Origin: an uncultured Chloroflexia bacterium
GTDB lineage: Bacteria > Chloroflexota > Limnocylindria > Limnocylindrales > CSP1-4
NCBI GenBank assembly: GCA_963746845.1
Contig: CAVVCZ010000005.1
Coordinates: forward strand, 448,001 to 512,000
Direction of reading: 5' to 3'
Length of the DNA: 64,000 nucleotides
Shown: positions 2,984-31,954 of the stretch, piece by piece
How positions within the stretch are numbered: the stretch's first letter is position 1
Layout of the letters: every line of letters starts with the position of its first letter
Notes under the pieces: generated by a model
What the model saw: the letters and a program-made list of their open reading frames with translations, nothing else
Database searches by the model: none
What the model was told of the DNA's origin: nothing
Position numbers and translations under genes: made by a program

Positions 2984-2991
2984 CCGCCTCG

Positions 2992-4526: not shown

Positions 4527-4527
4527 T

Positions 4528-5538: not shown

Positions 5539-5557
5539 GCTCGGAGACCTGCCGCGT

Positions 5558-6376: not shown

Positions 6377-6538
6377 GAGTTCGAAGCCTACTCGATCGGT
6401 CGACCGTTCAGGCCGATCGGGCATCGTTCGATCGTCCCACGCGCCCGGCGGATGGTCCGGGCCCCGTCATCGGTTCGACACCGGTTTCCGAGCGGCCTGT
6501 GGCACGATGACGCCCGAAGCCCAACTCGGAGAACCCGC

Positions 6539-7141: not shown

Positions 7142-7230
7142 CCGAGGCGGGACTTCCGGCTGCCGCGCATGGCCGTCCATCCGCGACGAACGCAGTCGGG
7201 GACGGGATTCGGGGTGTTGCGTCGCCGCGC

Positions 7231-8076
7231 TCAACCCTTCGGGGCGACGTCCTCGAGAAAGGACTCGACGAGCGGCAGGACGGTGTCTCTGGCCACGAAC
7301 GCGCCGATGTGATCGAGATCGTCCAGGTGGTGGAACGGGACGCCGAGCGCCGCAGCCGTGCGGGCGACCAGCGCCGGATCGTCGTGCTCGCCGCCGTACA
7401 CGAGCGCCGGCTGGCCGATCCGGTCCAGGCGGATCGACCGCCCGAAGCCCGACATCCGTCCGCCGAGGTTGACCGCCCCGAGCGCCCGCGGATCGAGGCA
7501 CTCGGCGGCGAACAGGACGTCCTCCCGCGGACCGGGCATCACCCCCCACAGCGCCGACCAGTCGCCGTGCCACAGGCGGTCCGCCCAGTCCCCCGTCCGC
7601 AGCGGATCCGGCGGCGACAGCAGGTCCTCGCCGCCCAGCACGAGCGCGGAGACGCGGTCCGGGTAGTCGATCGCCGCGACCGCGGCCAGGCTCGACCCCC
7701 GCGAGTAGCCCCAGATCGGCGCCCGGTCGACGCCGGCCGCATCCAGCACGGCGATCACGTCGCGCGCGACGTGCGGCCAGAGGTAGTCCTCGCGCTCGTG
7801 GGGACGATCGCTGAGCCCGTGCCCGAGCGGGTCGACGACGATCACCCGACGGGTCGCCGCCAGGGCCTGGGTGTAGCCCATCTCGCGCCAATCGGCCGCG
7901 AGCATCGTGTACCCGGGCACGAGGACGATCGGCGGACCGCTGCCGTGATCCTCGTAGCTGATCCGGAAGCCGCGCGACCGGGCCGACCCGAGCGTGATGT
8001 CGGCCGGATCGTTGCCGGCGGGCGTGCGCCACGACGGCCATCCCCAATTCGCGGAGACGAGCGTCGACGTGCTCAT
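7231..8076 (-). CDS. Alpha/beta fold hydrolase
   Basis: DPLGHGLSD, nucleophile elbow GYSRG, C-terminal Asp/His. Confidence 0.85.
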   Translation of the reverse strand: MSTSTLVSANWGWPSWRTPAGNDPADITLGSARSRGFRISYEDHGSGPPIVLVPGYTMLAADWREMGYTQALAATRRVIVVDPLGHGLSDRPHEREDYLWPHVARDVIAVLDAAGVDRAPIWGYSRGSSLAAVAAIDYPDRVSALVLGGEDLLSPPDPLRTGDWADRLWHGDWSALWGVMPGPREDVLFAAECLDPRALGAVNLGGRMSGFGRSIRLDRIGQPALVYGGEHDDPALVARTAAALGVPFHHLDDLDHIGAFVARDTVLPLVESFLEDVAPKG

Positions 8077-8089
8077 GACCCCCTCTCGT

Positions 8090-11000
8090 TCAGTGCAGGA
8101 CCGCGATCGCGTCCAGATCGATCCGCGGTCTGCCGGCGGTGCCGTCGACGATCAGCTTGATCGTGTGCGTGTGGCTCGACGACCAAACCGTCTGCCAGGC
8201 GATGCCCTGGTACATCGTCGGCGACGTGAGCATATCCACTCGCGTGACGTACGTTCCATCGAGATAGACGCGGACGGTCCCGCGCGTCGTCGCAAGCGTG
8301 GAGATCAGGCCGATCCCGCGGCCGGTGAACGTGTACGAGGCGGAGCTGCTCGTGGCGGACGAGGCCAGAACGGACCCGCCCGAGTAGAGCGATGACGTGG
8401 CGGCGGTCCACGACCCGGCGTAGTGGATCGCCGTCGAGGTCTGCTGGACCAGGCCCCCGGTCACGGTCGGGCCCGATACCCACGTCCCGGCGTTCCCGGA
8501 CGCGTCGATCGCCCGGACCCGGAGCTGGATCGACACGCCGGACGAGAGGCCCATCGCCATCGACGGCGTCGTCAGGCTCGTCGAGAGCTTCTTCCACGGC
8601 CCGCTGTCGATCTTCCGCTGGAGCTCGTACCTGACGATCCCGCTGCCGACATCGGCACCGCTCCACGACGCCAGGACCGGAATCGTGCTGCCGGACATCG
8701 CCATGTGCAGGCGCGGCCGGACGGTCGGAACGCTCGTCGTCGGCAGGCCGTGGTCGACGAAGACGGATCCGGCCGCGACGACCCCGACGGGTGAGACGTT
8801 CCCCGCGAGATCGAGGACCGACGACGCCTTCAGGTTGAGCAGCACGGTCCCGGTCCCGCAGCCGCTCGCCCCGACCGACCAGGTCGTCGCGGTGGTCTGG
8901 ATCGGAGTCGCGATCTTGCAGCCGGTTGCCGTGCCCGACCGGGTCAGGTCGCCCGCCGAGAACCCGCTGATCGCCTCGTCGAAGGTCACCGTCCAGGCCG
9001 GCGTCGTCGCGTGGGTCGGGGACGGCGGACCGGTGAGCGTCGCCGCTGCGGGCGTCCGGTCGATCGTGACGAAGCTCGACGCCGCCGGCGCGGACGGGCC
9101 GTCGTTCGACGACCGATCGACGACCGACCCCGGCCCCAGGGTCAGCCCGACCGTCCCCTCGCCGCAGCCGCTGATCTGGACGGACCACGTCACGTGGTCG
9201 GGGAGCACGGCGGGCGTCCCGATCCCGCAGCCCGCGGCGGTGCCGCCCAGGGTCAGGTCGCCCGCGGTCAGGCCGGTGACCGGCTCGCTGAAGATCACGT
9301 TGGCCGTCAGCGTCGCGGCCTTCGTCGGGCTGTGGGGCATCGCGATGGCGGCGCCCGGGGGCGTACGGTCGATGTGGACGGTCGGCCCGACCGCGGCCGA
9401 GGCCGGACCCGTCGAGGTCCCATCGCTCACGGTGGCCGGCTTGAGGGTCAGGATGACCGTCCCGTCCGTGGGTCCGCCGGACGCGAGATTGACGGCGTAC
9501 GGTCCGCTCCCCGAGCCGGACACGCCCGTCACGCCCCACCCGTCGGATGTCCCCGTGACGGTGAAGTCGTCCGTGGCGAGACCCGTGATGCTGTGGCTGA
9601 ACCAGACGGTCTCGTCGAAGGTCGACCCCACGCCGACGCCGGACGGCCCGGTCACCAGGGCGGTCGGCGGCGCCGTCGGGGCGCACCGGGCGGCGGTCAA
9701 CGCCCCGATGTTGAGCCGGCGACCCGTCGATGTCACGCCGGCGAGCCCCGCCGTTGCCGTCGCGGTCGTCAGCACGTCGGAGCGGAGGAGGTTGGCCGGC
9801 CGGCCGTACTCGCACGATGCCGCGAGGGCGATCGCGCCCGTCACGTGCGGCGCGGCCATCGAGGTCCCGTCGGCGATCGCGTAGGCCGACGGGGGGAACG
9901 TCGACACGATTCCCGCGCCCGGGGCTCCGAGGTCGACGCTCGTCGCCCCGTAGTTGGAGAAATCGGCGAGGGCGCCGGTCTTGCCGATCGCGGCCACCGA
10001 CACGATGCAGTCCCAGCCGCGCGCGGCACCATTCGGGTAGTGCTTGTCGCACTTGTTCGCGGCCGGGTAGAACGGGTTGGCCCCGTCGTCGTTGACGTGG
10101 TCGTTGCCGGCGGCGGCGACGAACAGGATGTTCTGGTCGCCGCCGCGGTTGATCGCGTCGACCAGCGCCTGGCTGAAGGCGCCGCCGCCCCAGCTGTTGT
10201 TCGTCGCCACGATGTCCAGCCCGTGACGGACCTTCAGATCCGTGAGGTAGTCGAGGGCGCGGATGGCGTTCGCCGTGTCCCCCGTGTCCTCGAGGAACTT
10301 CGCGCTGATCATGCTGACGGACCAATTGACCCCGACGACGCCGATGCCGTTGCCGCCGACCCCGCCGATCGTCCCGGCAACGTGGGTCCCGTGGCCGTCG
10401 TTGGCCGCGCCATCGTCGACGGTGTTGTCGTTGTGCAGGAAGTCCCAACCGTGGACGTCGTCGACGTAACCGTTGCCATCGTCGTCGATCCCGTTCACCG
10501 GGTCCCACGGGTTCGTCCAGATATTCGCCGCGAGATCCGGATGGTCGATCTGGATGCCCTCATCGACGATGCCGACCACGACAGTCGGGCTGCCCGTGAC
10601 GTCGGCGGCCCACGAGTCGACGGCGCCGGTCCCGAACGGGCTGGCGGGTCCGGCCAGCATCGCCCACAGGTTGTTCGGAGGCGGGGCGAGGAGGAACGGA
10701 TCGTCTGAGGTCGCATCCGTCGAGACGAGGTAGTCGGGCTCGGCGAACCGGACATCCGGGTCGGCCTCGAGGGCGGCGATCGCCGCGTCGACCGACGTCC
10801 CGGCGGGCAGCGTCAGCTTCTCCGAGGAGCCCGAGAGGGGCGACAGCCGATGCGCCGACGTGGCATTGACGGATCGCCGGGCCATGACCTGCCCGGAGGT
10901 CGACGTCCCGAGCCGGTACCCGACGAGGACGACGCCGGGGACGCGCGGCAGGTTCGGGTGGGGCCGCGCCGTGACTCGCGGGAGAGACGGGGTCCGGCCG

Positions 11001-20081: not shown

Positions 20082-21194
20082 CTAGCCATCTCCCGTCAAC
20101 GTGCCATCGGGCGCAGCCCCGACGGTCGTATCACGCTCGAACGGCCCCTGTGGATGGGCCGCTCCGAGCCGGAGCGCCCGGTCGATGTCGGCCTCGGAGG
20201 CCACGCCCTCGGCCACCGCGATGCCTGCCTCTGCGTCGATCGCGGCCAGGATCCGGGCCCGGATCGCCGCGGCGTCGGCCGCGGGTGCGGGCGCGTCCCG
20301 GAACCGGTCCGAGACCGCCGTCACCCGGCCGGCCTCGTAGCGATAGAACCCCTGACCGGTCTTGCGGCCGAGCTGCCGGGCCTCGACGAGCTCGGTCTGG
20401 ATCGGCGACGGACGGAGCCGGTCCGGCCGGCCTAGCCCTTCCCAGATCGCGGCGGCGGCGGCGGTCGTGACGTCGATCCCCGTCAGGTCCATCAGCTCGA
20501 AGGGGCCGAGGGGGAAGCCGCCGTCACGCATCGCGTCGTCGATCGCCTCGACGCCGGCCCGGCCCTCCTCGAGGATCCGGAGGGCCTCGATCGTGAACGG
20601 GCGGTTCACCCGGTTGACGATGAAGCCGGGGGTGTCCGCCGACCGGACCGCCGTTCGACCCCACGACTCGACGAGGCGCGTCAAATCGGCCACGACGGCC
20701 GGGTCGGTCGCGGGTGTCGGGACGACCTCGACCAGGCGCATGACCGGTGCCGGGTTGAAGAAGTGGAGCCCGAGGACGCGCTCCGGGCGCCGCGTGGCCG
20801 ACGCGATCGAAGCGATCGAGAGCGCGCTCGTGTTCGTCGCGAGGACCGTCCCGGGGTCGGCGACGCCGTCGAGGGTCCGGAAGATCGTCTGCTTCAGCTC
20901 GAGATCCTCGAGCGCCGCCTCGACGACGACGTCCGCTTCGTCGCCCAGCGCCTCGAGGACGTCGGTCTCGCGGAGCCGGGCGATCCGCTCGGCGACCCAG
21001 TCGTCGATCCCCGCCGGGTCCCCGACGAGCTTCGCCGCGCGGCGGGTCAGCCCGCCGGCGATCCGGTCCCGGCCCCGTCGCAGGGCCGGCTCGTCGACAT
21101 CGTGCAGGACGGTCTCGTGACCGGCTTCCAGGGCAAGTTGGGCGATCCCGGCGCCCATCACGCCTGCCCCCACGACGCCGATCACCTCGTTCAT
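20082..21194 (-). CDS. paaH: 3-hydroxyacyl-CoA dehydrogenase (PaaH type)
   Basis: GVVGAGVMGAGIA, ATNTSALS, GLHFFNPAP, PGFIVNR, GPFELMD; coupled to paaD. Confidence 0.85.
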   Translation of the reverse strand: MNEVIGVVGAGVMGAGIAQLALEAGHETVLHDVDEPALRRGRDRIAGGLTRRAAKLVGDPAGIDDWVAERIARLRETDVLEALGDEADVVVEAALEDLELKQTIFRTLDGVADPGTVLATNTSALSIASIASATRRPERVLGLHFFNPAPVMRLVEVVPTPATDPAVVADLTRLVESWGRTAVRSADTPGFIVNRVNRPFTIEALRILEEGRAGVEAIDDAMRDGGFPLGPFELMDLTGIDVTTAAAAAIWEGLGRPDRLRPSPIQTELVEARQLGRKTGQGFYRYEAGRVTAVSDRFRDAPAPAADAAAIRARILAAIDAEAGIAVAEGVASEADIDRALRLGAAHPQGPFERDTTVGAAPDGTLTGDG

Positions 21195-21655
21195 CAGATC
21201 GGTTTGAAGGCCTCGAACGGATTTCGGCAATCGCGGCAGTAGAAGAGGGATCGACAGAGGGTCGGGCCGAAGGCGCTGTCCATCGCGACCCGCGACGAGG
21301 CGCAGTACGGGCAGCGGACGTCCGCCGGTTCCGCGGGCGGGGCGATTCCGGCGGCACGGAGCCCGGCATGCCCTGCAGGGGTCAGGCGGTCGGTGGTCCA
21401 CGGGACCGCGAACGTGAAGTCGACCGTGACCGGGCGCCCGAGGCTCGCGAGCGCATCGGTCACCGTCGCGCGGATGACCTCGAGGGCCGGGCACGCGACG
21501 AACGTCGGGAGGAGCTCGATGCGGATCCCGTCATCGTCGACGCGGACGTCGTGGACGAGGCCGAGATCGACGATCGAGACGGTCGGGATCTCGGGGTCGT
21601 GGACCGTCCCGAGGACGTCCGTCACCACTGCCGCCGACACTGGCGCCGTCATCAC
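21194..21655 (-). CDS. paaD: Phenylacetyl-CoA epoxidase maturation subunit PaaD (MIP18 family)
   Basis: DPEIPTVSIVDLG, PTFVACPA, WTTD, CPYC...FGPTLCRS..YCRDCRNPFEAFKPI. Confidence 0.93.
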   Translation of the reverse strand: MMTAPVSAAVVTDVLGTVHDPEIPTVSIVDLGLVHDVRVDDDGIRIELLPTFVACPALEVIRATVTDALASLGRPVTVDFTFAVPWTTDRLTPAGHAGLRAAGIAPPAEPADVRCPYCASSRVAMDSAFGPTLCRSLFYCRDCRNPFEAFKPI

Positions 21656-22485
21656 CACGTCGCGCCGACCTCGGACCGGCGAACCATGGTGAACTCGGCG
21701 TGGAGGGCACGGAACGCGTCGGAGTGGGCCGTGCGGGCAGTGCCGGGATCGCGGGTCGGCGGCAGCGGCGCCAGGCCGAGACGCGCGAGCTGCGCGTTCG
21801 CCTCGACGCGCCAGCGCGCCTCGACGGCCGGAAAGGGCTCCGCGATGATCCCGTGCCGGACGAGTGCCGGCTCCCCGGGGAGTGGCGTCAGCACCGTGCC
21901 GGCGTCCGGCCCCATGACGTCGAGCGCCGCGATCAGGCGCCGACGCGGTTCGCCGCCCGCATCCGCGAGCCGCTCGAGCCACGCGTCGACGTGCATCCGG
22001 TGATAGCGCTCCTCGCGCCGGATCTTGGCGACGAGCTCACGGAGCGGCGCGTGCGTCGTGTCCGCGAGGGCCGTCAGACGCGCCGCGTCGGCCGTCTCGT
22101 AGAGCCAGCGCCGGGCGATCGTCGCCGCCCAGTCGCCGCGCGGATGGTCGAGCAGGCGAGCGTGGAGGTAGCCTTCCGGCGGCCGGTCGTAGGCGACCGC
22201 GTCCGCGTCCGGGCCGTCGGCGACCGCGTCCGCGTCCGGGCCGTCGGCGACGAGGTCCGCGAACAGCCCGTACAAGGCCTGGGCATGACCCAGCTCGTCC
22301 TGGGCGAGCGAGCTGATCGCAACGTCCTCCTCGAGGATCGGTCCGATCCCGGTCCACTCGGAGTCGCTGAACCCGATGACGAACTCGTCGTCGGCCATCG
22401 ACAGGAGGAGCACGGCGAGCGCCCGCTCGCGGCCGTCGCCGGCACCGGTGAAGTCCATCGCGATCTTCGGGTACTCCGTCGTCAT
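21652..22485 (-). CDS. paaC: Phenylacetyl-CoA epoxidase subunit C
   Basis: ADDEF..G...SEWTG..PILEED..QDELGHA, KIRREERYH; ferritin-like. Confidence 0.92.
   Translation of the reverse strand: MTTEYPKIAMDFTGAGDGRERALAVLLLSMADDEFVIGFSDSEWTGIGPILEEDVAISSLAQDELGHAQALYGLFADLVADGPDADAVADGPDADAVAYDRPPEGYLHARLLDHPRGDWAATIARRWLYETADAARLTALADTTHAPLRELVAKIRREERYHRMHVDAWLERLADAGGEPRRRLIAALDVMGPDAGTVLTPLPGEPALVRHGIIAEPFPAVEARWRVEANAQLARLGLAPLPPTRDPGTARTAHSDAFRALHAEFTMVRRSEVGATW
22192..22251. repeat. Exact 27-bp in-frame tandem duplication inside paaC
   Basis: GGCGACCGCGTCCGCGTCCGGGCCGTC twice (22192-22218, 22219-22245) plus a partial third copy; encodes (VADGPDADA)x2. Confidence 0.9.
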
Positions 22486-22823
22486 CGATCGCCCGCGTTC
22501 GCCTTCGGCTTCGCCTGCCCCGACTGCTCACGTGCCGCTGCCAGCTTGTCGCGCATGACGTAGCCGCCCGGCTTCTTGAACGACCGATCGAGCGGCGGCT
22601 GGAGGAGGTCCGGATCGGCCAGGTCGTGGATGTCCGCCCGCCGGACGACCCAGAGGTGGACGCTCTCTTGGCGCCGTCCGTACATCTCGCGGGCGTAGTG
22701 GAGGGCGAGCGTGGCATCGGGCGCCATCACCGAACCGCCGTGACGCATCGGGTCGCCGTCCTTCTCCCGGCGGAAGACCTCCCAGGGCTCGAGGACGCCC
22801 GCCGGCGCCGTCGCGTCTGTCAT
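22482..22823 (-). CDS. paaB: Phenylacetyl-CoA epoxidase subunit B
   Basis: WEVFRR...HGGSVMAPD..LALHYAREMYGRRQES..LWVV. Confidence 0.92.
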   Translation of the reverse strand: MTDATAPAGVLEPWEVFRREKDGDPMRHGGSVMAPDATLALHYAREMYGRRQESVHLWVVRRADIHDLADPDLLQPPLDRSFKKPGGYVMRDKLAAAREQSGQAKPKANAGDR

Positions 22824-23812
22824 GCGGCGGCTCGGGGCGCCGAGAGAATCGCGTCGCGGACCCACTGCGTGGCGGCCCAGTTGTCGCGGCGGAACTGGAG
22901 CCGCTCCTGGGACATCGGGCCGTGGTTCGTGACGACCGTCCGGAGCTCGTTCCAGTCGGGCTCCGCGTAGCGCCAGTCGCCGGTGGCGACGTCGAGACCC
23001 AGCTCGGGATCGGGCAGCGTCAATCCGAGCTCCCAGATCCGCGGCACGTAGATGCCGAGGAACTCCTGGCGCAGCTCCTCGCTCGTCTTCGCCTTGATCC
23101 GCCAGTGGATGTCACGGTCCTTGGAGCGGTCGCTGCGTGGGCCGTGCATCTGCATCAGCGGGCCCCACCAGCGGTCGAGCGCCTCCTGGATCGCCCCCCG
23201 CTGGGCCGGCGTGCCGGTCGCCATCGTCACGACGACGTCGCGCCCGTGCATGATGTGGACGCTCTCCTCCCAGCAGATCTTCCGCATCGTCCGGGCATAC
23301 GGGGCGTAGCTGCTGTCGCGCAGCGCCTGCTGGGCGACGATCGCCGCCGCGTCCACGAGCCAGGCGATGATCCCGATGTCGGCCCACGACTTCGTCGGGT
23401 AGTGGAAGACGTTGTGGAACTTCGTCTTCCCGTCGAGCAGGTCCTGGATCATCGCCTCGCGCGGCTTGCCGAGGTCTTCGGCGACCCGGTACAGCAGCTG
23501 GGCGTGCCCGACCTCGTCCTGGACCTTCGCGGTGAGGGCGAGCTTCCGGCGGAGGGTCGGCGCCCGCATGATCCATTCGCGCTCGGGCAGGACGCCCATG
23601 AGCTCGCTGTTCGCGTGCATCTCGACGAACCGGAGCACCTGGGTCCGGTACTCGTCGGGCATCCAGTCGGACGCCTCGACCTTGCCGCCGCCCGTCACGT
23701 GCTCCTCGAAGTGCCGGTAGCGCTCGTCGTGATCGAGCGCCTCGTCGTTGAACGGCAGCTGGCTGCGCTCGCGGGCCGGCAGAACAGGATCGAGTGCGAG
23801 CGGATCGGTCAT
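22820..23812 (-). CDS. paaA: Phenylacetyl-CoA epoxidase catalytic subunit A
   Basis: DWMPDEYR, HANSE, AKVQDEVGH, ICWEESVH diiron ligands. Confidence 0.96.
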   Translation of the reverse strand: MTDPLALDPVLPARERSQLPFNDEALDHDERYRHFEEHVTGGGKVEASDWMPDEYRTQVLRFVEMHANSELMGVLPEREWIMRAPTLRRKLALTAKVQDEVGHAQLLYRVAEDLGKPREAMIQDLLDGKTKFHNVFHYPTKSWADIGIIAWLVDAAAIVAQQALRDSSYAPYARTMRKICWEESVHIMHGRDVVVTMATGTPAQRGAIQEALDRWWGPLMQMHGPRSDRSKDRDIHWRIKAKTSEELRQEFLGIYVPRIWELGLTLPDPELGLDVATGDWRYAEPDWNELRTVVTNHGPMSQERLQFRRDNWAATQWVRDAILSAPRAAA

Positions 23813-24399
23813 CGGTGGTCCTCCGAGAGGGCGCGGAGCGCGAGGTCGACGTAGTGGTCGGCGATCCGGTCGGCGGTCAGGCGGCCGTCCGGGCGGTACC
23901 AGGTCGCGATGCCGTTGAGGGCGGTGAGGACGAAGGTCGCCGCGAGGGCGACATCGGTCGCCCCGAAGGCCCCGACCGCGATCCCATCCTCGATCGTCGT
24001 CCGGAACCTGGCTTCGTAGGCGTCCCGGCGAGCGGCGATGGCGGCCCGGCGCTCTGCGGAGAGGTGGCGCCATTCCGTGAGGAAGACGCTCGAGCGCTGC
24101 GGGTCGGCGGTCACGACCTCGACGTGGGCCTCCACGAGGGCGGCCAGCCGGTCGACGGGGTCCGTGCCGGCGGCTTCGGCGACGGCCGACTCGGCCGCCC
24201 CCTCGAAGGTCGTCGCCGCCCGATCGACGATCGACCAGAGGACATCCTCCTTCGACGCGACGTGGGCGTAGAGGCTGGCCCCCTGGATGTCGAGCGCCTT
24301 CGCGATGTCGCGGACGCTCGTCGCCGCGTAACCGTTCGCATGGAACAGCTCGCTAGCCACGTCGTCGATCTCGCGGCGTCGCGTTCCGGTCTCGATCAT
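23809..24399 (-). CDS. paaR: TetR family regulator of the paa operon (PaaR type)
   Basis: GYAATSVRDIA...ASLYAHVASKE HTH, WYRPDG; first gene of the paa operon. Confidence 0.8.
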   Translation of the reverse strand: MIETGTRRREIDDVASELFHANGYAATSVRDIAKALDIQGASLYAHVASKEDVLWSIVDRAATTFEGAAESAVAEAAGTDPVDRLAALVEAHVEVVTADPQRSSVFLTEWRHLSAERRAAIAARRDAYEARFRTTIEDGIAVGAFGATDVALAATFVLTALNGIATWYRPDGRLTADRIADHYVDLALRALSEDHR

Positions 24400-24405
24400 C
24401 TGGCC

Positions 24406-24434
24406 ATGATCCAACCGAACGTTCGTTAGGTCAA
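24406..24434 (-). promoter_or_regulatory. paa operon promoter with PaaR-type operator in the spacer
   Basis: Minus strand TTGACC-TAACGAACGTTCGGTTG-GATCAT-6 nt-ATG; CTAACGAACGTTCG fits the CNAACNNNCGTTNG PaaR box I recall from Thermus. Confidence 0.8.
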
Positions 24435-24476
24435 GATCTCGGTTCGGCGGTTGCTCCCCCCTCGGAGCTTTCCGAT

Positions 24477-25151
24477 CTACGGGAAGTGAACGCTGTCGAG
24501 CATTGCCTGCAGCGCCGCGCGATCGTCCGGGTCTGCCGCGGCATGCACGCCGAGGTCTCGCATCCCGAATAGATAGGCCACGTGGTCGTGGACCGTGATC
24601 GCGTTGTTGATCAGGATCCCGCAGTTCCATTCGAGAAGAACGCCCGGCTCGCCGCCGATCCTGATGTTGTGCTGGGCTTCCGGGGCGTCCGGGCACGTGT
24701 CGCCGTGGTACTTGACCGTGTCCGAGATCGTCTGGCTGACTACATCGGCCAACCCGCCCTTCGTCGGTGCAACGTTGGCCCACGCGCTCCTCGCGGAGGA
24801 GTCGATGAACTGGTCGGACTCGCGAGCGTCATGGCTCAGGCCCGACACCCCGTCCCAGGCCACGGTGGCCTGGATCGTCGTCCAGTTCGCCGGCACCGTC
24901 AGGGAGTACCCGTACAGGGCCGACGTGAACGTCGTCGGAACCGTCGCCGCGCTTGGAGCCGCCGTCGGCGTCGGCGTCGGATTCGACGGCGCGATGGTCG
25001 GTTTCGGGCTTGCGGCGGCGGACGACGGCAGGGCCGACGCGTCCGAACCGGCGTCGGAAGATGAACTCGCCCCGGCCCCGCCGCCCGAGCACGCGCCGAG
25101 CGCCAGCACGACGGCGGCCAACGCCGTCATTCGTGTCCTGGTTGTCATCAT
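24477..25151 (-). CDS. Hypothetical lipoprotein (possibly PsbP/Mog1-like fold)
   Basis: RBS GGAGG, lipobox LGAC, Ser/Pro/Thr linker, FTSALYGYSLTVPANW. Confidence 0.75.
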   Translation of the reverse strand: MMTTRTRMTALAAVVLALGACSGGGAGASSSSDAGSDASALPSSAAASPKPTIAPSNPTPTPTAAPSAATVPTTFTSALYGYSLTVPANWTTIQATVAWDGVSGLSHDARESDQFIDSSARSAWANVAPTKGGLADVVSQTISDTVKYHGDTCPDAPEAQHNIRIGGEPGVLLEWNCGILINNAITVHDHVAYLFGMRDLGVHAAADPDDRAALQAMLDSVHFP

Positions 25152-25230
25152 CGCCTCCAGGTGGATCGTCCAGCGGCCGGGGACTTGCTCTCCGTCCTCG
25201 AGACCGCACTTCCCGACCGACCTTCGCCGG

Positions 25231-25277
25231 ACCGTGTCCAGCCCCGCCCCACGCTCGCTCTATCCGCCCTCTACGGC
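25231..25277 (-). promoter_or_regulatory. SARP-type activator boxes upstream of the lipoprotein gene
   Basis: Minus-strand heptamers TAGAGGG, TAGAGCG, TGGGGCG at 11-bp period, then 8 nt, then -10-like CACGGT. Confidence 0.6.
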
Positions 25278-25289
25278 GGTCCGCCCATG

Positions 25290-28200
25290 TCAGAGGCCGC
25301 ACGGGCCGACGTCGGGGCCGAACGTTCGGGCCGCGTCGACGCGGTCTTCGGGAACGCACGGGACATCGATCGCGCCGGCGACGATCCGAGCACCAAGTGT
25401 CTCGAGACGCGGACGGAGGTCGTCGATGAACCCGCCGCTGTACGAGAGGGCAACGCCCTGGGAGGCGAGGTCGAAGATGCGGGTGCCAGAACGAAACTCG
25501 CCCTTCGCGAATTCCTTCAGCAAGGTGTAGACGGCCAGGTCCTGGTGGAGGACCACCGACGTCAGGATGTGGCTGCGCCACGCGTCCGGATCGACCGCGC
25601 CAGTCAAGGATCGGACCGTCTCGAACTGGTCGCTGTCGACGCCGATCGCCCAAAGTTGCCGGCCGGGCCGGGACATCGTCGTTGCCGCGTCGAAGACGCC
25701 GATGCCGGACCCGCCGGCAGCGTGGAAGATGACGTCGGCACCGGCGTCATACATTGCGCGGGCCGCGTCTCGGGCGCCCATCGGATTGTCGAACGCGCGA
25801 TGGAAATCGGCTCGCGACAAGTACGTCGAGAGGATCCGCACCTCCGGATCGATGCTCCGCGCTCCGGCCTCGAACCCCGCCTGGAATCTCCACAGATACG
25901 GGTGGTCGAGGCCCCCGATGAAGCCGATCACCCTCCCGTTGCTCGTCAGGGCCGCGGCCGCTCCGGCGAGGAACGACCCTTCCTTCGTGGCGAACGCGAT
26001 CGTCGACACATTCGGCGCCACGACCTTCGCGTCGACGACGAAACGCGTCGCCGGGTAGTCGTGAATGACCGGCCGGACGTCGTCGACGACGGCTCCCGAG
26101 ACGATGATGAGCTCGGCGCCTTCGGCTGCCAGGCTCCGGAGCTCCGTCGCGGCCCCCTCGCTCTCGTCGTACAGGCGCTCCTTGCCGGCGAGGCTGAAGT
26201 CGGCAACCGCGCGATCGAACCCGTCCTCATTGAGGTCGTCGAGGGCGGCCACGCCGGGCTTCAACAGGGCCACGCGCGGGACATGGGCGATCGCCGTCGC
26301 CCAGACGCCATAGCCAACCGCGCCGCCGAGCAAGGCAATCGCGATCACAAGGGCGACCAGCCGGATCCGCGCGCGGCCCTCGAGCCGTCGGTTCGTGTCG
26401 CGTCGCGCGGCCTCCTCGCGCTGCTCGAGATCGCGCCGAGCGACGCCCGCGTCGAGGAACGCTCGTTCACGGTCGTTCAGGTGGAGGACACCCTCCCGGC
26501 TCAGCGTCTCGAACTCGGCCAGTCGCCCACCCGCAAGGAGGTAGTCCGGGTCGCGCCCGGACAGCTCCCATTCCTCGACCGCACCTGCAAACGCCTCGTG
26601 GCGTCTCAGGGCACTTCGGTGTCGGTCGATCCAGCCGGCGAGTCGTTCCCACTCCCGGAAGAGCGCCTCATGGGCGACCTCGACCATCGCCTTGCCCGTG
26701 ACCATGTCGCGATCGAACGAGAGGAGACGATGGCGCCCGAATGCCCCGAGCACCTCGGATAGCACGACCGGATCGAGGTCCAATCCGGTCAGGTCGGAGA
26801 GGGGGACTCGCTGCCGCGAGTCGACCGGGCCGCCGCCCAGCCGGACGAGGCGAAGGAACACCTGCATCGCGGCCCGCTGCTCATCGGGGCTCAACGCGGC
26901 GTACAACCCTTCGGCTCGTCTCGAGAGGATCCCGTTCAGGCCACCGAGGGCGCGGTAGCCGGAGAGGGTGAGGCCGGCCGGCGCCCGCTGATCGAACAGC
27001 TCGGTGAGGGCGTACTGAAGGAGGGGCAGCGCGCTGGATCGATCGGCGGTCTCGGCGACGATCTCGGCGACCAGAGCCGGCTCCACGGGCACGCCGACCC
27101 GCGCCGCGGGACCGACGATTGCCGCCTCGAGCTCGGTCCGGGTCATCGGCAACACGTTCACGACCGCGGGAATGAACACCTCGGCGAACGGCGGGTCGTT
27201 GAGGGGTCGGTCGTAGAAGTCGGCCCGGAGCGCGAGGACGACGACGAGCTGGCCCTCCGGCTCCGCGACGGCGGCGGCGAGCGCACCGAGGAACCGCCGC
27301 CGGACAGGCTCGTCAGTGACCGAGAAGACCTCCTCGAACTGATCGATGGCCAGGACCAGCCGCCCGTCGTCCGGCATGGTCCGAAGGGCCGGCGGACCCG
27401 AGCCCGCCGCCCGTTCGTCGAGCAGCTGCGCGAGCCCGACCGGCAGGCCCGCAATCTTCGAGACCACGGCCTCGACCTGCTCCAGCGGGTGCGGGCCCGG
27501 GATGAACGGTGCGATGAGCCACCGTTCCGATCCGGGGATCGCCCCCGCCCGCAGGCTGCGCAGCAGGCCGGCCGCCAGGACGCTCGACTTCCCCGATCCC
27601 GACGGCCCGACGAGGGCGATCAGGCGCGACCCCTCCCGGAGTCGATCGAGCAGCCTCGTCAGGAGCTCCTCTCGTCCGAAGTAGTCGGCCGCGTCGGATT
27701 CGGCGAAGGGCCGCAGGCCCTTGTACGGATTGCGCGACTCGCGGGGGTCGGCCGCGAGGTCGGCGGGCACCATGAGTGCCGGGTCGTGGACCAGGATCCG
27801 CTCGTGCATCCGCTGGATCGGCGGGGACGGCTCGAGACCCAGCTCTTCGTCGAGGATGGCCCGGAGTCGTTCGTACGACCGCAGGGCCTCGGCATGTCGC
27901 CCGGATCGGTACAGCGCCAGCATCAGCAGCTCGCGGGACCGTTCCCGCATCGGATCCTCGCGGATGGCCGAATCGAGAAGCGAGATCACGTCGGCCGCCC
28001 GGCCGGATGTCAGCTCCGCGGATGCCAGGGCCTCGATGCCGTCGAGGTGCACGTCGTGCAACCGACGAATCTGGGGTTGGGCGAACTCGTCGTAGGCGAA
28101 GTCGGACAGAGGCGGACCGCGCCACAGGTCCAGGGCGGCGCGGACGATGGCCGCGCCGTCGTCGCGCTCGCCCGCCTCGATCCTGCGCGTTCCGTCCTCG

Positions 28201-28520
28201 ATCAGTCGCTCGAACCGGCGGGCGTCGATGGCGTCCGGGTCGGCCCCCAGCATGTAGCCGGGTGGACGCGTGACGATGAGGCGATCGCCGGCGAATGGCT
28301 CGAGCGTCTTCCGGAGCTCGGAGACGTAGATCTGGATCGAATGCAGGGCGGTCCGTGGAGGGCTGTCCCCCCACAACAGGTCGATCAACCGGTCTGCCGG
28401 GACGATCTCCCCGACGTGCAGGAGGAGGATGGCCAGGACGGCCCGCTGCTTGGGCGGACCCAGCTCGGCCCGCGCCCCGTCGGTCCCCGCCTCGAGTGTC
28501 CCGAGGATCCGGAACTGCAT
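25290..28520 (-). CDS. SARP (wHTH+BTAD) - STAND NTPase - TM - BMP-family sensor fusion regulator
   Basis: FRILG/QRAVLAILLL/LWRGPPL (SARP), NPYKGLRPF, GPSGSGKSS, IDQFEEVF, LRADF, AHEAL (nSTAND1-type), one TM helix, GSFLAG/GADVIFHAAG/IGVDSDQ (BMP). Confidence 0.88.
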   Translation of the reverse strand: MQFRILGTLEAGTDGARAELGPPKQRAVLAILLLHVGEIVPADRLIDLLWGDSPPRTALHSIQIYVSELRKTLEPFAGDRLIVTRPPGYMLGADPDAIDARRFERLIEDGTRRIEAGERDDGAAIVRAALDLWRGPPLSDFAYDEFAQPQIRRLHDVHLDGIEALASAELTSGRAADVISLLDSAIREDPMRERSRELLMLALYRSGRHAEALRSYERLRAILDEELGLEPSPPIQRMHERILVHDPALMVPADLAADPRESRNPYKGLRPFAESDAADYFGREELLTRLLDRLREGSRLIALVGPSGSGKSSVLAAGLLRSLRAGAIPGSERWLIAPFIPGPHPLEQVEAVVSKIAGLPVGLAQLLDERAAGSGPPALRTMPDDGRLVLAIDQFEEVFSVTDEPVRRRFLGALAAAVAEPEGQLVVVLALRADFYDRPLNDPPFAEVFIPAVVNVLPMTRTELEAAIVGPAARVGVPVEPALVAEIVAETADRSSALPLLQYALTELFDQRAPAGLTLSGYRALGGLNGILSRRAEGLYAALSPDEQRAAMQVFLRLVRLGGGPVDSRQRVPLSDLTGLDLDPVVLSEVLGAFGRHRLLSFDRDMVTGKAMVEVAHEALFREWERLAGWIDRHRSALRRHEAFAGAVEEWELSGRDPDYLLAGGRLAEFETLSREGVLHLNDRERAFLDAGVARRDLEQREEAARRDTNRRLEGRARIRLVALVIAIALLGGAVGYGVWATAIAHVPRVALLKPGVAALDDLNEDGFDRAVADFSLAGKERLYDESEGAATELRSLAAEGAELIIVSGAVVDDVRPVIHDYPATRFVVDAKVVAPNVSTIAFATKEGSFLAGAAAALTSNGRVIGFIGGLDHPYLWRFQAGFEAGARSIDPEVRILSTYLSRADFHRAFDNPMGARDAARAMYDAGADVIFHAAGGSGIGVFDAATTMSRPGRQLWAIGVDSDQFETVRSLTGAVDPDAWRSHILTSVVLHQDLAVYTLLKEFAKGEFRSGTRIFDLASQGVALSYSGGFIDDLRPRLETLGARIVAGAIDVPCVPEDRVDAARTFGPDVGPCGL

Positions 28521-28590
28521 CGACTGCCTCGCTGGCGCCGCGACTGTGGCCGATGGTGGGCGCGGCCACACGCGCGGTCAACTCCGGGAC

Positions 28591-28626
28591 AGGCTGGTGA
28601 CGGGCGTTCTAGGGACGCTCTACGGC
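28591..28626 (-). promoter_or_regulatory. SARP-type boxes upstream of the SARP gene (putative autoregulation)
   Basis: Minus strand GCCG-TAGAGCG-TCCC-TAGAACG, 8 nt, then -10-like CAGCCT. Confidence 0.6.
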
Positions 28627-28766
28627 CGACGGACGCGGTTGGTGTGCAGGTCCGCACGCTTCGCACGCGAGGCCGATCGCGATCCGGAGTACGCTTGTGG
28701 CCTGACCGGTCGGTGTACCGGCGTCCGCTGTGGACGCCCTCGGCCCTTCTTGAGCAAGGACCGACC

Positions 28767-29750
28767 ATGGTGACCGACGACTCCGTGCGCGCCACTGCGC
28801 TCACGCCAGCTCCCACTGTGGCATCCCTCGCGGATGATCGTGCCCTCCTCGAGGAGCTCGAACCCGAGGCCGCCCGCCTGTACGACCGCCACGCGAAGGT
28901 CGCCCAGGAGTGGTTCCCCCACGACTACATCCCGTACCGGCTCGGGCGCGACTTCGACAAGGAGCCCTGGACGCCCGACCAGCCGCGGCTGACCGGCGTC
29001 GCCCAGATCAGCTTCGAGGTCAACCTCCTGACCGAGGACAACCTGCCCTCCTACCACCGCCTGATCCACGGGATGTTCGGATCCGGCGACGGCGCGTGGA
29101 TCAACTGGATCGGGCGCTGGACGGCCGAGGAGGGCCGCCACGCGATCGTCCTCCGCGACTACCTCACGGTGACCCGGAACCTCGACCCGATCGCCCTCGA
29201 GCGCGGCCGGATGACGCAGCTCCAGCAGGGCTACGACCGCGAATCGATCGACACGCTCCGCGGCCTCGCCTATGTCGCGTTCCAGGAGCTCGCAACGCGG
29301 ATCTCGCATCGGAACACGGGGCGCTACTCACAGGACCCGGTCGCCGACAAGATCATGACGAGGATCGCGGCCGACGAGAACCTCCACATGGTCTTCTACC
29401 GCGACATCCTCGCCGCGGCGCTGAAGATCCAGCCGTCGCGAGCGGTCCAGGCGATCGTCGCGGAGGTCCTCGCGTTCGAGATGCCCGGCAACGGAATCCC
29501 CGGGTTCCTCCGGAAGGCCGCCGCGATCGCGCGGGCCGGGATCTACGACATCCGGATCCACCGCGACGAGGTCCTGCTGCCGATCCTCAACCACTGGCGG
29601 ATCTTCGAGCTGACCGGGCTCGATGCGGCCGCCGAGGACGCCCGCCGGGTCCTCGCCGAGCATCTCGACAAGCTCGAGGTCGCCGCGAAGCGGTTCGAGG
29701 AGAAGATGGCCCTGACCGGGGACCGCGAGCGACTGATCCGCGTCGGCTGA
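28767..29750 (+). CDS. Acyl-ACP desaturase (DesA-like diiron enzyme)
   Basis: NLLTEDNLPSYH, WTAEEGRH, FQELAT..SH, IAADENLH; RBS AAGGA. Confidence 0.93.
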   Translation: MVTDDSVRATALTPAPTVASLADDRALLEELEPEAARLYDRHAKVAQEWFPHDYIPYRLGRDFDKEPWTPDQPRLTGVAQISFEVNLLTEDNLPSYHRLIHGMFGSGDGAWINWIGRWTAEEGRHAIVLRDYLTVTRNLDPIALERGRMTQLQQGYDRESIDTLRGLAYVAFQELATRISHRNTGRYSQDPVADKIMTRIAADENLHMVFYRDILAAALKIQPSRAVQAIVAEVLAFEMPGNGIPGFLRKAAAIARAGIYDIRIHRDEVLLPILNHWRIFELTGLDAAAEDARRVLAEHLDKLEVAAKRFEEKMALTGDRERLIRVG

Positions 29751-29822
29751 CGACAGAGGTCCGTCGACGGCCCGCCCGCCCTCGTAGGATTGGCCGACCA
29801 GCCGATCAGACACGAGGACCTG

Positions 29823-31130
29823 ATGGCCGAACCCCTGACCATCCTGTTCATGCCCGAGTCGGCGTACGGGCCGACGAACAACTGCATCGGGATCGGCGAC
29901 GTGCTCCGGCGCCGCGGGCACCGGGTCGTGTTCGCCGCGGAGGCGTCGTGGGCCGGCCGGCTCGAGCCGCTCGGGTTCGTCGAGGATCTGGTCGACCTCG
30001 CGCCGCCCCCGCCTTCGGACGCACCGGCCCAGGACGCCGGTCAGTTCTGGAAGGACTTCATCCGCGACACCGCGCCGGAGTTCCGCAAGCCGACGATCCA
30101 GCAGCTCGACACGTTCATGGTCCCGACGTGGCAGGCCCTGATCGACGGAGCGAGGTACTGCGAGCCGCACCTGCGCGAGATCATCGCCCGCCAGGGGCCG
30201 GACGTCATCGTCGAGGACAACGTCGTCGCCTTCCCGGCGCTCGAGACGGCCGGCAAGCCGTACGTCCGGATGGTGTCGTGCAATCCGCTCGAGATCCGCG
30301 GGCCGGGGATCGCGCCGACCTACTCGGGCCTGCCGGCCGATGACCCGTCGGAATGGGAAGCCTTCCGCGAGGAATATGACCGCACGCATCGGCCGACCTG
30401 GGAGGCCTTCGACGCCTGGTGCCGCGAGCATGGCACGGAGCCGCTCCCCGAGCTGGAGTTCGAGCATCCGTCGCGCGACCTGAACATTTACGTCTACCCG
30501 CAAGTCGCCGATTACGTCGACCGCCGCCCGCTCGATCCGCGGCTGTGGCAGCGGCTGGACTCCTCGGTCCGGGCGACCGACGCCGCCTTCGAGCTCCCGG
30601 AGGCGATTGCAGACCGGCCTGCCGGGTCCGGGCTCGTCTACCTGTCGCTCGGCTCGCTCGGCAGCGCGGACGTCTCGCTGATGCGGCGGCTGGTCGAGGT
30701 CCTCGGCGACACGCCCCACCGGTACATCGTCTCCAAGGGGCCCCAGCACGCGGACTACGACCTCGCGCCGAACATGTGGGGTGCGGAGTTCCTGCCGCAG
30801 ACCTCGATCATCCCGCTCGTCGACCTCGTGATCACCCACGGCGGCAACAACACGACGACCGAGGCATTCCACTTCGGCAAGCCGATGGTCGTGCTGCCGC
30901 TGTTCTGGGACCAGTACGACAACGCCCAGCGGGTCGACGAGACCGGGTTCGGGGTCCGGCTGCCGACGTACGCGTTCGAGCCGGCCGACCTGGCGGGCGC
31001 GATCGACGGCCTCCTGACCGACGGCGAGCTGCGGACGAGGATGGCCGGGATCGGGGCGGAGATCCGGGCACGGGACGGGGTCGCGAAGGCCGCGGCCGCG
31101 ATCGAGTCGGTGGGGCTGGCGCACCGGTGA
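29823..31130 (+). CDS. GT1 family UDP-glycosyltransferase (MGT-like)
   Basis: RRGHRVVF, VYLSLGS, FLPQ..I....DLVITHGGNNTTTEA, PLFWDQ. Confidence 0.9.
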   Translation: MAEPLTILFMPESAYGPTNNCIGIGDVLRRRGHRVVFAAEASWAGRLEPLGFVEDLVDLAPPPPSDAPAQDAGQFWKDFIRDTAPEFRKPTIQQLDTFMVPTWQALIDGARYCEPHLREIIARQGPDVIVEDNVVAFPALETAGKPYVRMVSCNPLEIRGPGIAPTYSGLPADDPSEWEAFREEYDRTHRPTWEAFDAWCREHGTEPLPELEFEHPSRDLNIYVYPQVADYVDRRPLDPRLWQRLDSSVRATDAAFELPEAIADRPAGSGLVYLSLGSLGSADVSLMRRLVEVLGDTPHRYIVSKGPQHADYDLAPNMWGAEFLPQTSIIPLVDLVITHGGNNTTTEAFHFGKPMVVLPLFWDQYDNAQRVDETGFGVRLPTYAFEPADLAGAIDGLLTDGELRTRMAGIGAEIRARDGVAKAAAAIESVGLAHR

Positions 31131-31954
31131 GTCCCGCCGCCACGGCGACACCCGTCCACGAGATGCGCGCCGTCCGCGCGACCCGCTACGTCACCGCGTT
31201 CCGCGAGGGCGGGTCGCTGCCCGGGCTCGTCGAGGCGGACGATGACGGGATGTACGTCGTGAAGTTCCGCGGCGCCGGGCAGGGCCCGCGCGTCCTCGTC
31301 GCGGAGTGGCTCGCCGGCGAGATCGCCCGCGCGCTCGGGCTGCTCGTCCCGGACATCGTCTCCGTCGATCTCGTCAAGGCGATCGCGGACCCCGAGCCCG
31401 ACCCGGAGATCCACGACCTGCTCGTCGCGAGCGTTGGGCGCAACATCGGCCTCGACTTCCTGCCGGGCTCGCTGACCTTCAACCCGGCGGTCGACCGGGT
31501 GGCCGATCCGGACTGGGCGGCCGCGGTGGTCTGGCTCGACGGGCTGGTGACGAACCCCGATCGCTCGCCGAAGAACCCGAACCTGCTGACCTGGGGCGGC
31601 CGGACCTGGCTGATCGACCACGGGGCGTCCCTGTACATCCACCACACCTGGCGCGCTCCATCCGCGCACGCGCGTCGGCCGCACGCCGAGCGGCTGTCCG
31701 ACCACGTCCTGCTGCCGTTCGCGTCGTCGATCGCCGACACCGATGCCCGTCTGGCTTCGCTGCTGACGGCCGAGCTGCTGGAGTCGCTGGTCGCGGCCAT
31801 CCCCGATGACTGGCTGGCGCCGGATCCGGTGATCGGGTCCGCCGCCGATCAGCGGCTGGCATACGTCGCCTACCTCCGAGGCCGGTTGGAGGCGCCGCGG
31901 CCGTTCGTCGAGGACGCCGATCGCCTCCGCCTCGCCGCCGGGGCAGCTGCGTGA
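31127..31954 (+). CDS. HipA-like (HipA_2 type) Ser/Thr kinase
   Basis: REGGSLP loop, YVVKFRGAGQG, VAEWL, NPDRSPKNPNLL, LIDHG; GTGA overlap with the GT1 gene. Confidence 0.85.
   Translation: MSPAATATPVHEMRAVRATRYVTAFREGGSLPGLVEADDDGMYVVKFRGAGQGPRVLVAEWLAGEIARALGLLVPDIVSVDLVKAIADPEPDPEIHDLLVASVGRNIGLDFLPGSLTFNPAVDRVADPDWAAAVVWLDGLVTNPDRSPKNPNLLTWGGRTWLIDHGASLYIHHTWRAPSAHARRPHAERLSDHVLLPFASSIADTDARLASLLTAELLESLVAAIPDDWLAPDPVIGSAADQRLAYVAYLRGRLEAPRPFVEDADRLRLAAGAAA

Follow-up and report, generated by a model that had tools for sequence, protein, structure and literature searches.

A putative membrane-spanning SARP regulator with an nSTAND1 NTPase and an outside BMP-type sensor domain in an uncultured Chloroflexia bacterium

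The present analysis concerns one gene in a 64,000-nucleotide stretch of DNA (hereafter the window; positions 448,001 to 512,000 of contig CAVVCZ010000005.1, assembly GCA_963746845.1) from an uncultured Chloroflexia bacterium. The gene encodes in a single polypeptide a SARP module, which consists of a winged helix-turn-helix (wHTH) and a BTAD domain, an nSTAND1 nucleoside triphosphatase (NTPase), one predicted transmembrane (TM) helix and a BMP-type binding domain. The product is probably a ligand-gated, membrane-spanning SARP that acts as a one-component transcription activator of its own gene and of an exported neighbour, although the case is well short of certain. The domain order, the topology signals, and the conserved sites with their positions were computed in this study, and from these we infer ligand binding, signal transmission, oligomerisation and activation. 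The features of the gene, in coordinates of the window, are as follows.

25290..28520, minus strand: SARP-nSTAND1-TM-BMP gene, 1076 residues from the ATG at 28520; stop codon TGA at 25290-25292.
28248..28454, minus strand: wHTH domain of the OmpR/PhoB type (Trans_reg_C), residues 40-108, Pfam E 1.3e-10.
27792..28229, minus strand: BTAD (bacterial transcriptional activation domain), residues 115-260, Pfam E 1.8e-42.
26544..27728, minus strand: nSTAND1 NTPase (PF20703), residues 282-676, Pfam E 2.6e-106, profile positions 1-379 of 379.
27582-27608, minus strand: Walker A motif GPSGSGKSS, residues 322-330, with the lysine at K328.
27330-27359, minus strand: Walker B motif hhhhDQFEE, with D410 and E413.
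26292..26363, minus strand: single TM helix, residues ~737-760, from hydropathy and the AlphaFold2 model.
25323..26276, minus strand: BMP/PnrA-fold domain (periplasmic-binding-protein type I), residues 766-1083 in the AlphaFold2 model; Pfam Bmp (PF02608) at residues 803-1071, E 1.5e-37.

The longest open frame of the gene (25290..28571, minus strand) has 1093 codons and starts at a GTG; residue numbers refer to this frame throughout. The family-consensus start is the ATG at 28520, residue 18 of that frame, and it is preceded by GAGG. The GC contents at codon positions 1, 2 and 3 are 0.75, 0.49 and 0.86, which is coding-like in this genome of 70% GC. An earlier reading of the DNA, made from the letters without database searches (hereafter the sequence-only reading), had described one open reading frame of about 1076 residues joining the four modules, and the gene is indeed intact. 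A search of a collection of 5.8 billion proteins gave 2348 matches among the 8000 candidates scored. All four Pfam domains were present in 118 of the 120 best homologues listed (53-83% identity), and the length was 1041-1112 residues in all but two of them; the remaining two were shorter and lacked Bmp. Since more than 100 full-length homologues share the four-domain order, an assembly artefact, which the sequence-only reading had named as a possible origin of the fusion, was ruled out. The homologues come from metagenome bins of Actinomycetota and Chloroflexota (Limnocylindrales), and those that bear a name in the sources are annotated as a 'BTAD domain-containing putative transcriptional regulator' or as a 'BMP family ABC transporter substrate-binding protein'. 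In the comparisons below, G-numbers denote genomes and L-numbers denote the loci compared; G016 is the closest relative, with 83% identity.

The N-terminal part of the protein shows the succession of an OmpR-type wHTH and a BTAD that defines the SARP family. In Foldseek it matched AfsR (8K60, 8HVR) with target-normalised TM-scores (TMt) of 0.88-0.89 at ~40% identity, and EmbR was also matched. The family profile matched AfsR with an E-value of 1.8e-56, confined to positions 2-312, and here, too, EmbR was found. The score against the NCBIfam AfsR equivalog NF053617 was only 185 bits, against a cut-off of 1430, and covered residues 11-329 alone. The full-length similarity, the NB-ARC domain and the TPR sensor by which AfsR is recognised were not found; TPR matches in Pfam were below the cut-off and fell inside the BTAD. 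By domain content and fold, the protein is a SARP and not an AfsR orthologue. The 'AfsR-type head' of the sequence-only reading was therefore right as to the SARP wHTH-BTAD module, but not as to AfsR itself, since the head is that of a generic SARP and the NTPase is nSTAND1 rather than NB-ARC.

The NTPase matches the nSTAND1 model over its full length. Its Walker A and Walker B residues (K328, D410 and E413) are intact, and they are unchanged in all 117 aligned family members, so that the nSTAND1-like NTPase with intact Walker motifs in the sequence-only reading is confirmed. Foldseek gave weak matches of this part to plant NLR resistosomes and to ORC/Cdc6. In a family-profile search of PDB structures, no solved structure matched the nSTAND1 part by sequence.

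The membrane segment has a Kyte-Doolittle 19-mer score of 2.38, and no other segment of the protein exceeds 1.68; the family median for the helix is 2.32. An AlphaFold2 model was calculated from a 117-sequence alignment, with a mean predicted local distance difference test score (pLDDT) of 87.8. In this model a long charged helix (residues 700-746) leads into the membrane segment, and the TM helix is followed after only ~5 residues by the first BMP strand. Lys and Arg are distributed very unevenly around the helix. In the 117 members, the 25-residue stretch on the N-terminal side of the helix carries a median of 8 such residues and the equally long stretch on its C-terminal side a median of 1, and the N-terminal stretch has the higher number in 104 of them. 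On the basis of this bias and the positive-inside rule, the N-terminal 736 residues are predicted to be inside and the BMP domain outside. The wHTH and NTPase domains need a cytoplasmic location to work.

The distribution of Cys residues was also analysed in the 117 members. The cytoplasmic 740 residues contain a median of 0 Cys. In 95 members the ectodomain has two Cys and no more; their positions are conserved (C1072 in 100 members, C1091 in 98), and the pair would fit an extracytoplasmic disulfide. The BMP domain is thus predicted to be extracytoplasmic and the SARP and nSTAND1 parts cytoplasmic. By this prediction the protein has a layout like that of ToxR and CadC, namely a cytoplasmic wHTH, one TM helix and an outside sensor in one chain. 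The score of the helix, the medians of the basic residues and the Cys pattern all support the single TM helix with the BMP domain outside that the sequence-only reading had proposed. The domains, the topology signals and the conservation also support its broader proposal of a membrane-tethered NLR-like (STAND) activator with an extracytoplasmic BMP domain.

The model shows the entire BMP fold, with the first beta-alpha-beta unit that was missed by the Pfam match. The domain matched pneumococcal PnrA by sequence with an E-value of 1e-30, which became 3e-52 with a 10-sequence family profile. In Foldseek, PnrA (6Y9U), TmpC (2FQW), Lbp (7X0R), BmpD (6SHU) and Med (2HQB) were matched with TMt values of 0.75-0.84; for PnrA, TmpC, Lbp and BmpD the values were 0.75-0.82. 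Pfam, the sequence match to PDB structures and Foldseek therefore all assign the BMP fold. The lipoprotein signal and the ABC operon that are usual for the BMP family are absent; the protein has its own internal TM anchor and no adjacent ABC genes.

The nearest solved relatives of the BMP domain are nucleoside-bound proteins, namely PnrA, TmpC of T. pallidum, Lbp of C. thermocellum, BmpD and BmpA. PMC9601137 describes guanosine bound in the crystal of C. thermocellum Lbp. According to PMC13325309 and PMC7093131, the nucleoside pocket consists of an aromatic sandwich of TmpC Phe36 and Phe186 and of ribose contacts by Asp108, Asp238 and Lys260. Pocket positions were mapped with HMMER alignments, in which the published TmpC number equals the chain index plus 15, as checked on Ser86/Phe87. 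The equivalents in the present protein, with counts among the 117 family members, are as follows.

TmpC Phe161: F896; F in 90, W in 23.
TmpC Phe186: F927; F in 107.
TmpC Val237-Asp238: V978-D979; D in 113.
TmpC Asp108: D847; D in 35 only.
TmpC Phe36 (stacking): L777; V in 35, L in 28, I in 22, F in 12.
TmpC Lys260 (ribose-binding): L1008; K in 103, R in 8, L in 3.

Four of the seven PnrA pocket positions are kept, and the base-reading Asp27 loop could not be aligned. L1008 is common to the G016 orthologue. F785 was also considered as the stacking Phe, and it was dropped because the profile alignment to Lbp puts L777 at the stacking position. A nucleoside-like ligand is thus plausible, though unproven, for the family, and it is less certain for the present protein. 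The nucleosides proposed as ligand in the sequence-only reading are thus favoured by the closest solved homologues, all of which are nucleoside-bound, but not by the Leu residues found here at both the Phe36 and the Lys260 positions.

It is worth noting that the same mechanism could operate with a ligand other than an ordinary nucleoside. The ligand might be a purine base, a flavin, a sugar or a modified nucleoside such as methylthioadenosine, and specificity might vary by subclade. The two Leu residues speak for this interpretation, as do the high variability of loop 771-779 and of position 847 in the family. The riboflavin-binding RfuA (4IIL) and AtzT (6PI5) are also among the BMP structures that match the family profile. 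In addition, genome G005 carries a short homologue (locus L098, G005:C1:267000-285000) that adjoins genes for an IF-2B/MtnA-like protein, a class II aldolase, a cupin, a PNP_UDP_1 phosphorylase and a BMP-ABC transporter; the cluster, at 400-9922 of this locus, hints at methylthioadenosine or nucleoside salvage. This context is, however, a single locus. The best matches both in sequence and in fold are all nucleoside-bound (PnrA, TmpC, BmpD, and Lbp with guanosine), and the equivalents of Phe186, Phe161 and Asp238 are kept in most members, as listed above. We therefore regard a non-nucleoside ligand as possible but rather unlikely.

The intergenic DNA on both sides of the gene was compared with the flanks of the gene in G016. 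Two conserved islands were found in the otherwise diverged sequence. Both consist of two direct repeats with a period of exactly 11 bp and are on the sense strand of the gene, and the second one precedes a lipoprotein gene.

28607..28622, minus strand: box 1, TAGAGCGTCCCTAGAA, a pair of direct pentamer repeats at 11-bp spacing; lies 86 nt upstream of the regulator's start codon ATG.
25258..25273, minus strand: box 2, TAGAGGGCGGATAGAG; starts 16 nt past the stop codon of the regulator and ends 106 nt before the ATG of the lipoprotein gene.
24477..25151, minus strand: predicted target lipoprotein gene, 224 residues, with a signal peptide, a Cys lipobox, a low-complexity linker and a PsbP/Mog1-fold domain.

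SARP binding sites are known to consist typically of direct repeats spaced by one helical turn. In the window there are two occurrences of the pattern TAGAG-N6-TAGAR, where 0.01 are expected, and boxes 1 and 2 are its only matches in the 3.56-Mb genome; the reversed control gave 7. Since the pattern was derived from these two boxes, the independent tests are those at other loci. The same motif was found in G016, G023, G015, G013, G005, L002, L003 and L005, located 86-105 nt before the homologous gene or before the adjacent gene for a small exported protein. Among 72 loci of the related WD40 type (see below) it was found once. Among the metagenome loci, 7 of 31 evaluable cases have the motif upstream of the gene and 8 of 38 have it just past the stop codon, all of them closer relatives. 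More distant members have other units at the same period, for example three copies of TTAGC in L004, three of CTTGGA in L008 and two of TAAGT in L133 and L136.

The period itself was examined in 37 upstream regions of the family, from -170 to -20, by searching for an exact 5-mer direct repeat with at least two A/T. A repeat at 11 bp was found in 20 of the 37 loci, and only 0-2 loci showed one at each of the spacings 7-10 and 12-16. The window is not among the 20 loci because its second repeat is TAGAA. Some loci in this test are near-duplicates (L102/L106, L002/L084 and L097/L006/L115), and at least 15 distinct boxes remain.

Box 1 lies within a 246-bp spacer that is shared with a divergent acyl-ACP desaturase gene (28767-29750). 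We assign it to the regulator because its distance to the regulator gene is fixed in genomes with other neighbours. A TTGACC hexamer is located at 28576-28581, 25 nt downstream of box 1, and is followed by 17 nt and then CACCAT. TTGACC recurs in the own-promoter sites of G016, G023, G013 and G015/L002. With these elements taken as the promoter, box 1 would be located at about -76 to -61. We read box 1 as a putative autoregulatory SARP site. When one mismatch was allowed, the genome gave 12 matches and the reversed control 24. There is no excess of such sites genome-wide, and no wider regulon is visible; the idea of a wider regulon was dropped.

Behind each downstream box there is a gene for a small exported protein, in every case examined. 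The family of the lipoprotein encoded in the window comprises ~70 clusters and has no Pfam domain. The model of the lipoprotein has a pLDDT of 82.9 and matched CyanoP (2LNJ) in Foldseek with a TMt of 0.64; Apa, LpqN, Mtc28 and DcrB also matched. The exported neighbours at other loci belong to differing families, which include lipoproteins, signal-peptide proteins and one DctP-type binding protein. In at least five loci the neighbour is a membrane-anchored peptide with GYPxHGGLAGPS repeats. The regulon is predicted to be local and to consist of the regulator itself and one exported neighbour. The nutrient or cell-lysis cue suggested in the sequence-only reading finds no support in this predicted regulon, which includes no nucleoside metabolism.

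The GYPxHGGLAGPS proteins have 103-129 residues, an N-terminal membrane anchor, 2-3 repeats and no Pfam domain. A TAGAG box precedes each gene, and a SARP-BMP gene adjoins it. The genes are located as follows.

L097:11178-11540: GYPxHGGLAGPS gene.
L099:7971-8282: GYPxHGGLAGPS gene.
L098:9965-10354: GYPxHGGLAGPS gene.
L128:2297-2677: GYPxHGGLAGPS gene.
L163: GYPxHGGLAGPS gene, after its box.

The exported neighbour also bears on another possible role of the BMP domain, which might report on a partner protein rather than on a free ligand. One candidate is a BMP-type ABC permease, in an arrangement for transport flux or co-sensing, and another is the exported protein that is regulated together with it. 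A box-controlled gene for an exported protein adjoins the regulator in all 9 box-carrying loci examined, and the very short tether would keep the BMP domain at the membrane surface. Moreover, two BMP lipoproteins of the ordinary kind are encoded in the genome, both with ABC transporter genes behind them. On the other hand, no transporter gene adjoins the regulator in the window, and the sensor BMP domain is just 30% and 24% identical to the two transporter BMP proteins; these identities also rule out a recent duplication of a transporter BMP as the origin of the sensor. The exported neighbours are of unrelated families, which argues against a conserved protein-protein interface, and the cleft residues are conserved as for a small ligand. 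It is therefore improbable that the domain senses a partner.

The following mechanism would accommodate the ligand-gated activation proposed here. The SARP module and the nSTAND1 NTPase would reside in the cytoplasm, one helix would cross the membrane, and the BMP domain, a Venus-flytrap fold, would sit directly on the outer face of the membrane on its ~5-residue tether. A small molecule would bind in the cleft; nucleosides and related ribosyl or hetero-aromatic compounds are the most likely candidates. Closure of the cleft would reach the NTPase by way of the short tether, then the TM helix and finally the helix at 700-746. The NTPase would then exchange its nucleotide and oligomerise, as in other STAND proteins, and the SARP domains would be gathered head to tail on the two TAGAG repeats 11 bp apart. 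As a result, the regulator's own promoter (positive autoregulation) and that of the adjacent lipoprotein gene would be switched on. The protein would thus form a local circuit that senses the outside and expresses an exported protein.

Several observations do not sit easily with this mechanism. The predicted TM-score (pTM) of the AlphaFold2 model is 0.53, and the arrangement of the domains relative to each other is accordingly uncertain. The topology is based on our own hydropathy and charge counts. Classical SARP boxes overlap the -35 element; box 1 lies upstream of a good -35-like hexamer with no overlap. A consensus scan of 25050-28900 detected no consensus sigma-70 promoter or terminator. 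The box-driven neighbour differs among genomes, so that it gives no clear indication of the physiological output. In the pocket, the Leu residues at the Phe36 and Lys260 positions and the poor conservation of the Asp108 equivalent have to be counted on the same side.

A further difficulty is raised by the short homologue in G005 (L098). In this soluble sister form, the wHTH and BTAD are fused straight to the BMP domain, with neither an NTPase nor a hydrophobic segment. The short SARP-BMP subfamily is recurrent, with a length of ~613 residues and identities of 48-96%; the best 120 clusters in a search with the short form included ~60 full-length members and ~20 more shorter BMP-containing pieces. 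Because this form exists, a BMP domain can serve a SARP as sensor without a STAND switch, and it can work inside the cell. The Cys pair of the ectodomain is also kept in it. The comparison of the two forms shows that the BMP domain changed compartment within the family.

It could therefore be supposed that the hydrophobic segment of the long form is not a membrane span, or that its insertion is reversed, and that the BMP domain is cytoplasmic. Such a sensor is viable, as the short form demonstrates, and our topology analysis, which consists of hydropathy and charge counts, leaves some room for this view. However, the short form has no hydrophobic segment at all, whereas the long form has one with a score of 2.38, close to the family median, with many basic residues before it and almost none after it. 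The wHTH and the NTPase must also be cytoplasmic to work. A cytoplasmic BMP domain in the long form is thus highly improbable.

The distribution of the gene was examined in the genus and in the phylum. Among 36 further genomes of the genus, four carry the long form (G016, G023, G015 and G013) and G005 carries the short form. In an even phylum sample of 401 genomes, a TM helix and a BMP domain within a frame of more than 1000 residues were found only in the genome of the window and in G016. The genome of the window has one nSTAND1 protein, in a single copy. The copy in G013 (L099, G013:C12, 8409-11646, minus strand) consists of two overlapping frames with a break near residue 517. This split gene is either a frameshifted pseudogene or an assembly error.

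To place the protein among its relatives, the 80 closest relatives in genome contigs were analysed. A strong hydrophobic helix directly follows nSTAND1 in 75 of the 80, with 4-9 Lys/Arg before it and 0-6 after it; the 5 relatives without the helix are open reading frames broken by contig ends or frame breaks. The sequence-only reading had contrasted this regulator with AfsR-like STAND regulators, which are normally cytoplasmic; a TM helix after the NTPase is, however, not peculiar to this protein but the rule in this nSTAND1 clade. Beyond the helix, 64 of 73 regions contain WD40 repeats and five are of the BMP type (L001, L003, L004, L005 and L008). Among the N-terminal regions (n=61), 45 have a Ser/Thr kinase, 10 a LuxR-type HTH, 9 a SARP, 5 an HTH_3 and 1 a nucleotide cyclase. 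The general plan of the clade is thus a signalling output, nSTAND1, a TM helix and a predicted outside sensor, and the BMP branch has a small-molecule-binding fold in place of the propellers.

It was also observed that many of the proteins at L009-L080, from Chloroflexota and Actinomycetota, have 1200-2300 residues and consist of a kinase, LuxR HTH or SARP, nSTAND1, a TM helix and ~700 residues of WD40 repeats predicted to be outside.

A quite different role, in biological conflict or self/non-self recognition, has to be considered for the SARP-nSTAND1-TM-BMP protein, with the variable exported protein as the deployed factor. The nSTAND1 family was named in the context of conflict systems (Kaur et al. 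2021, PMC8195603), and such a role has been proposed for nSTAND1 proteins. The gene is patchy, being present in 4 of 36 other genomes of the genus and in 2 of 401 genomes of the phylum including its own, and the neighbouring cargo is variable. However, the output is a transcription activator with its own putative sites and not a death-type or enzymatic effector. The gene is in single copy with no signs of diversification, the sensor is a small-molecule-binding fold, and the sister proteins carry the signalling outputs counted above. The death-like, EAD or enzymatic effectors and the multi-gene conflict neighbourhood by which conflict nSTAND1 proteins are recognised were not found; the output here is a SARP, and the neighbours are paa, TetR, desaturase and glycosyltransferase genes. 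A conflict role is accordingly quite improbable. The conflict nSTAND1 proteins of Kaur et al. share the NTPase family with the present protein; they and the bacterial NACHT proteins with TM regions are discussed as immune systems, with death-type or enzymatic effectors and multiple TM regions. The present protein has one TM helix, an ectodomain of small-molecule type and a transcriptional output. The preprint of Kibby et al. (10.1101/2022.07.19.500537) mentions in passing that TM-bearing bacterial NACHT proteins may sense periplasmic signals.

The protein was further compared with known regulators and sensors. Like AfsR of S. coelicolor (8K60, 8JKE, 8HVR), it has an N-terminal wHTH and BTAD followed by a P-loop STAND NTPase, and its SARP part fits AfsR in promoter complexes with a TMt of 0.89. 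AfsR differs in that its NTPase is NB-ARC and that it is soluble with a TPR sensor, in place of which the present protein has the TM helix and the predicted extracytoplasmic BMP domain. The position of the box upstream of the -35-like hexamer also distinguishes it from large SARPs. EmbR of M. tuberculosis, a SARP with an FHA domain, has the wHTH and BTAD in common with it. ToxR and CadC resemble it in combining a cytoplasmic OmpR-type wHTH, one TM helix and an outside sensor in one polypeptide, with DNA bound at the membrane, and CadC (5JU7) gave a weak wHTH match to the family profile. In contrast to these proteins, the present one has its DNA-binding domain separated from the membrane by ~650 residues of BTAD and NTP-dependent STAND switch, and its sensor is of the periplasmic-binding-protein fold. 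The BMP/PnrA lipoproteins and Med have the same fold and the conserved equivalents of Phe161, Phe186 and Asp238; the BMP/PnrA lipoproteins are held by a lipid anchor, whereas the regulator has its own TM helix and no adjacent ABC genes. BT1754, a hybrid two-component sensor of Bacteroides with a fructose-binding periplasmic binding protein (2X7X, rank 37 in Foldseek), likewise uses a type-I fold of this kind as outside sensor. Its output is, however, histidine-kinase phosphotransfer and its sensor belongs to another subfamily, while the present protein has STAND and SARP parts.

The sequence-only reading knew of no characterised example of this architecture, and our full-text literature searches, which did not extend to subscription journals and supplements, revealed no paper on a SARP-nSTAND1-TM-BMP protein; such architectures might appear in the supplementary tables published by Kaur et al. 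(2020, 2021) and by Kibby et al. In the literature searched we also found no description of a receptor-like class in which a kinase, LuxR or SARP output is joined to nSTAND1, a TM helix and outside WD40 repeats. We tentatively suggest, as a possibility that falls somewhat short of an even chance, that bacteria have a large, so far undescribed class of transmembrane STAND (NLR-like) receptors, of which the gene would represent one branch. In this class an output (SARP, LuxR HTH, Ser/Thr kinase or cyclase) would be followed by nSTAND1, a TM helix and outside WD40 or BMP domains, and an outside ligand would drive nucleotide-dependent oligomerisation inside. The BMP branch would be an autoregulated module with its own 11-bp repeats and a variable exported protein.

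STAND/NLR switches are known as cytosolic sensors, and ToxR and CadC are known as simple wHTH-TM-sensor chains. The present family joins the STAND switch with the membrane-bound one-component layout. If the proposal is true, an NTP-driven oligomerisation switch would be gated from outside the cell. A predicted operator, predicted targets and an isolable ectodomain are all defined, which makes the proposal directly testable. A larger group is also indicated, since TM nSTAND1 proteins with a kinase, LuxR or SARP part and outside WD40 repeats are common in Chloroflexota and Actinomycetota.

The paa, TetR, desaturase and glycosyltransferase genes around the regulator in the window are shared only with G016 and are absent from seven more distant loci. 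Because they are shared only with the closest relative, these neighbours are uninformative on function, and a conserved gene neighbourhood was dropped as a functional clue. Phenylacetate catabolism genes (PaaA/PaaC-like and PaaD-like) and a gene for a TetR-family regulator follow the lipoprotein gene downstream, at 21194-24783 on the minus strand, and G016 is the only genome with which they show synteny.

Three minor observations were made on the other side of the regulator. An open reading frame with a match to HipA_2, a HipA-like kinase (30419-31954, plus strand, E 6e-14), overlaps with its 5' part the glycosyltransferase frame at 29790-31130. The Rfam family ASdes (RF01781), a mycobacterial small RNA antisense to desaturase, matched 29130-29197 on the minus strand with 51.7 bits against a gathering threshold of 40 (E 2.7e-10). 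This match lies inside the desaturase gene and antisense to it, and it may merely reflect conserved coding sequence. Finally, ~75-80 nt at about 28690-28766, directly upstream of the desaturase start, are identical in G016, while the nearby intergenic DNA has diverged. No Rfam family matches this block, which might serve the desaturase gene as a leader or as a regulatory element.

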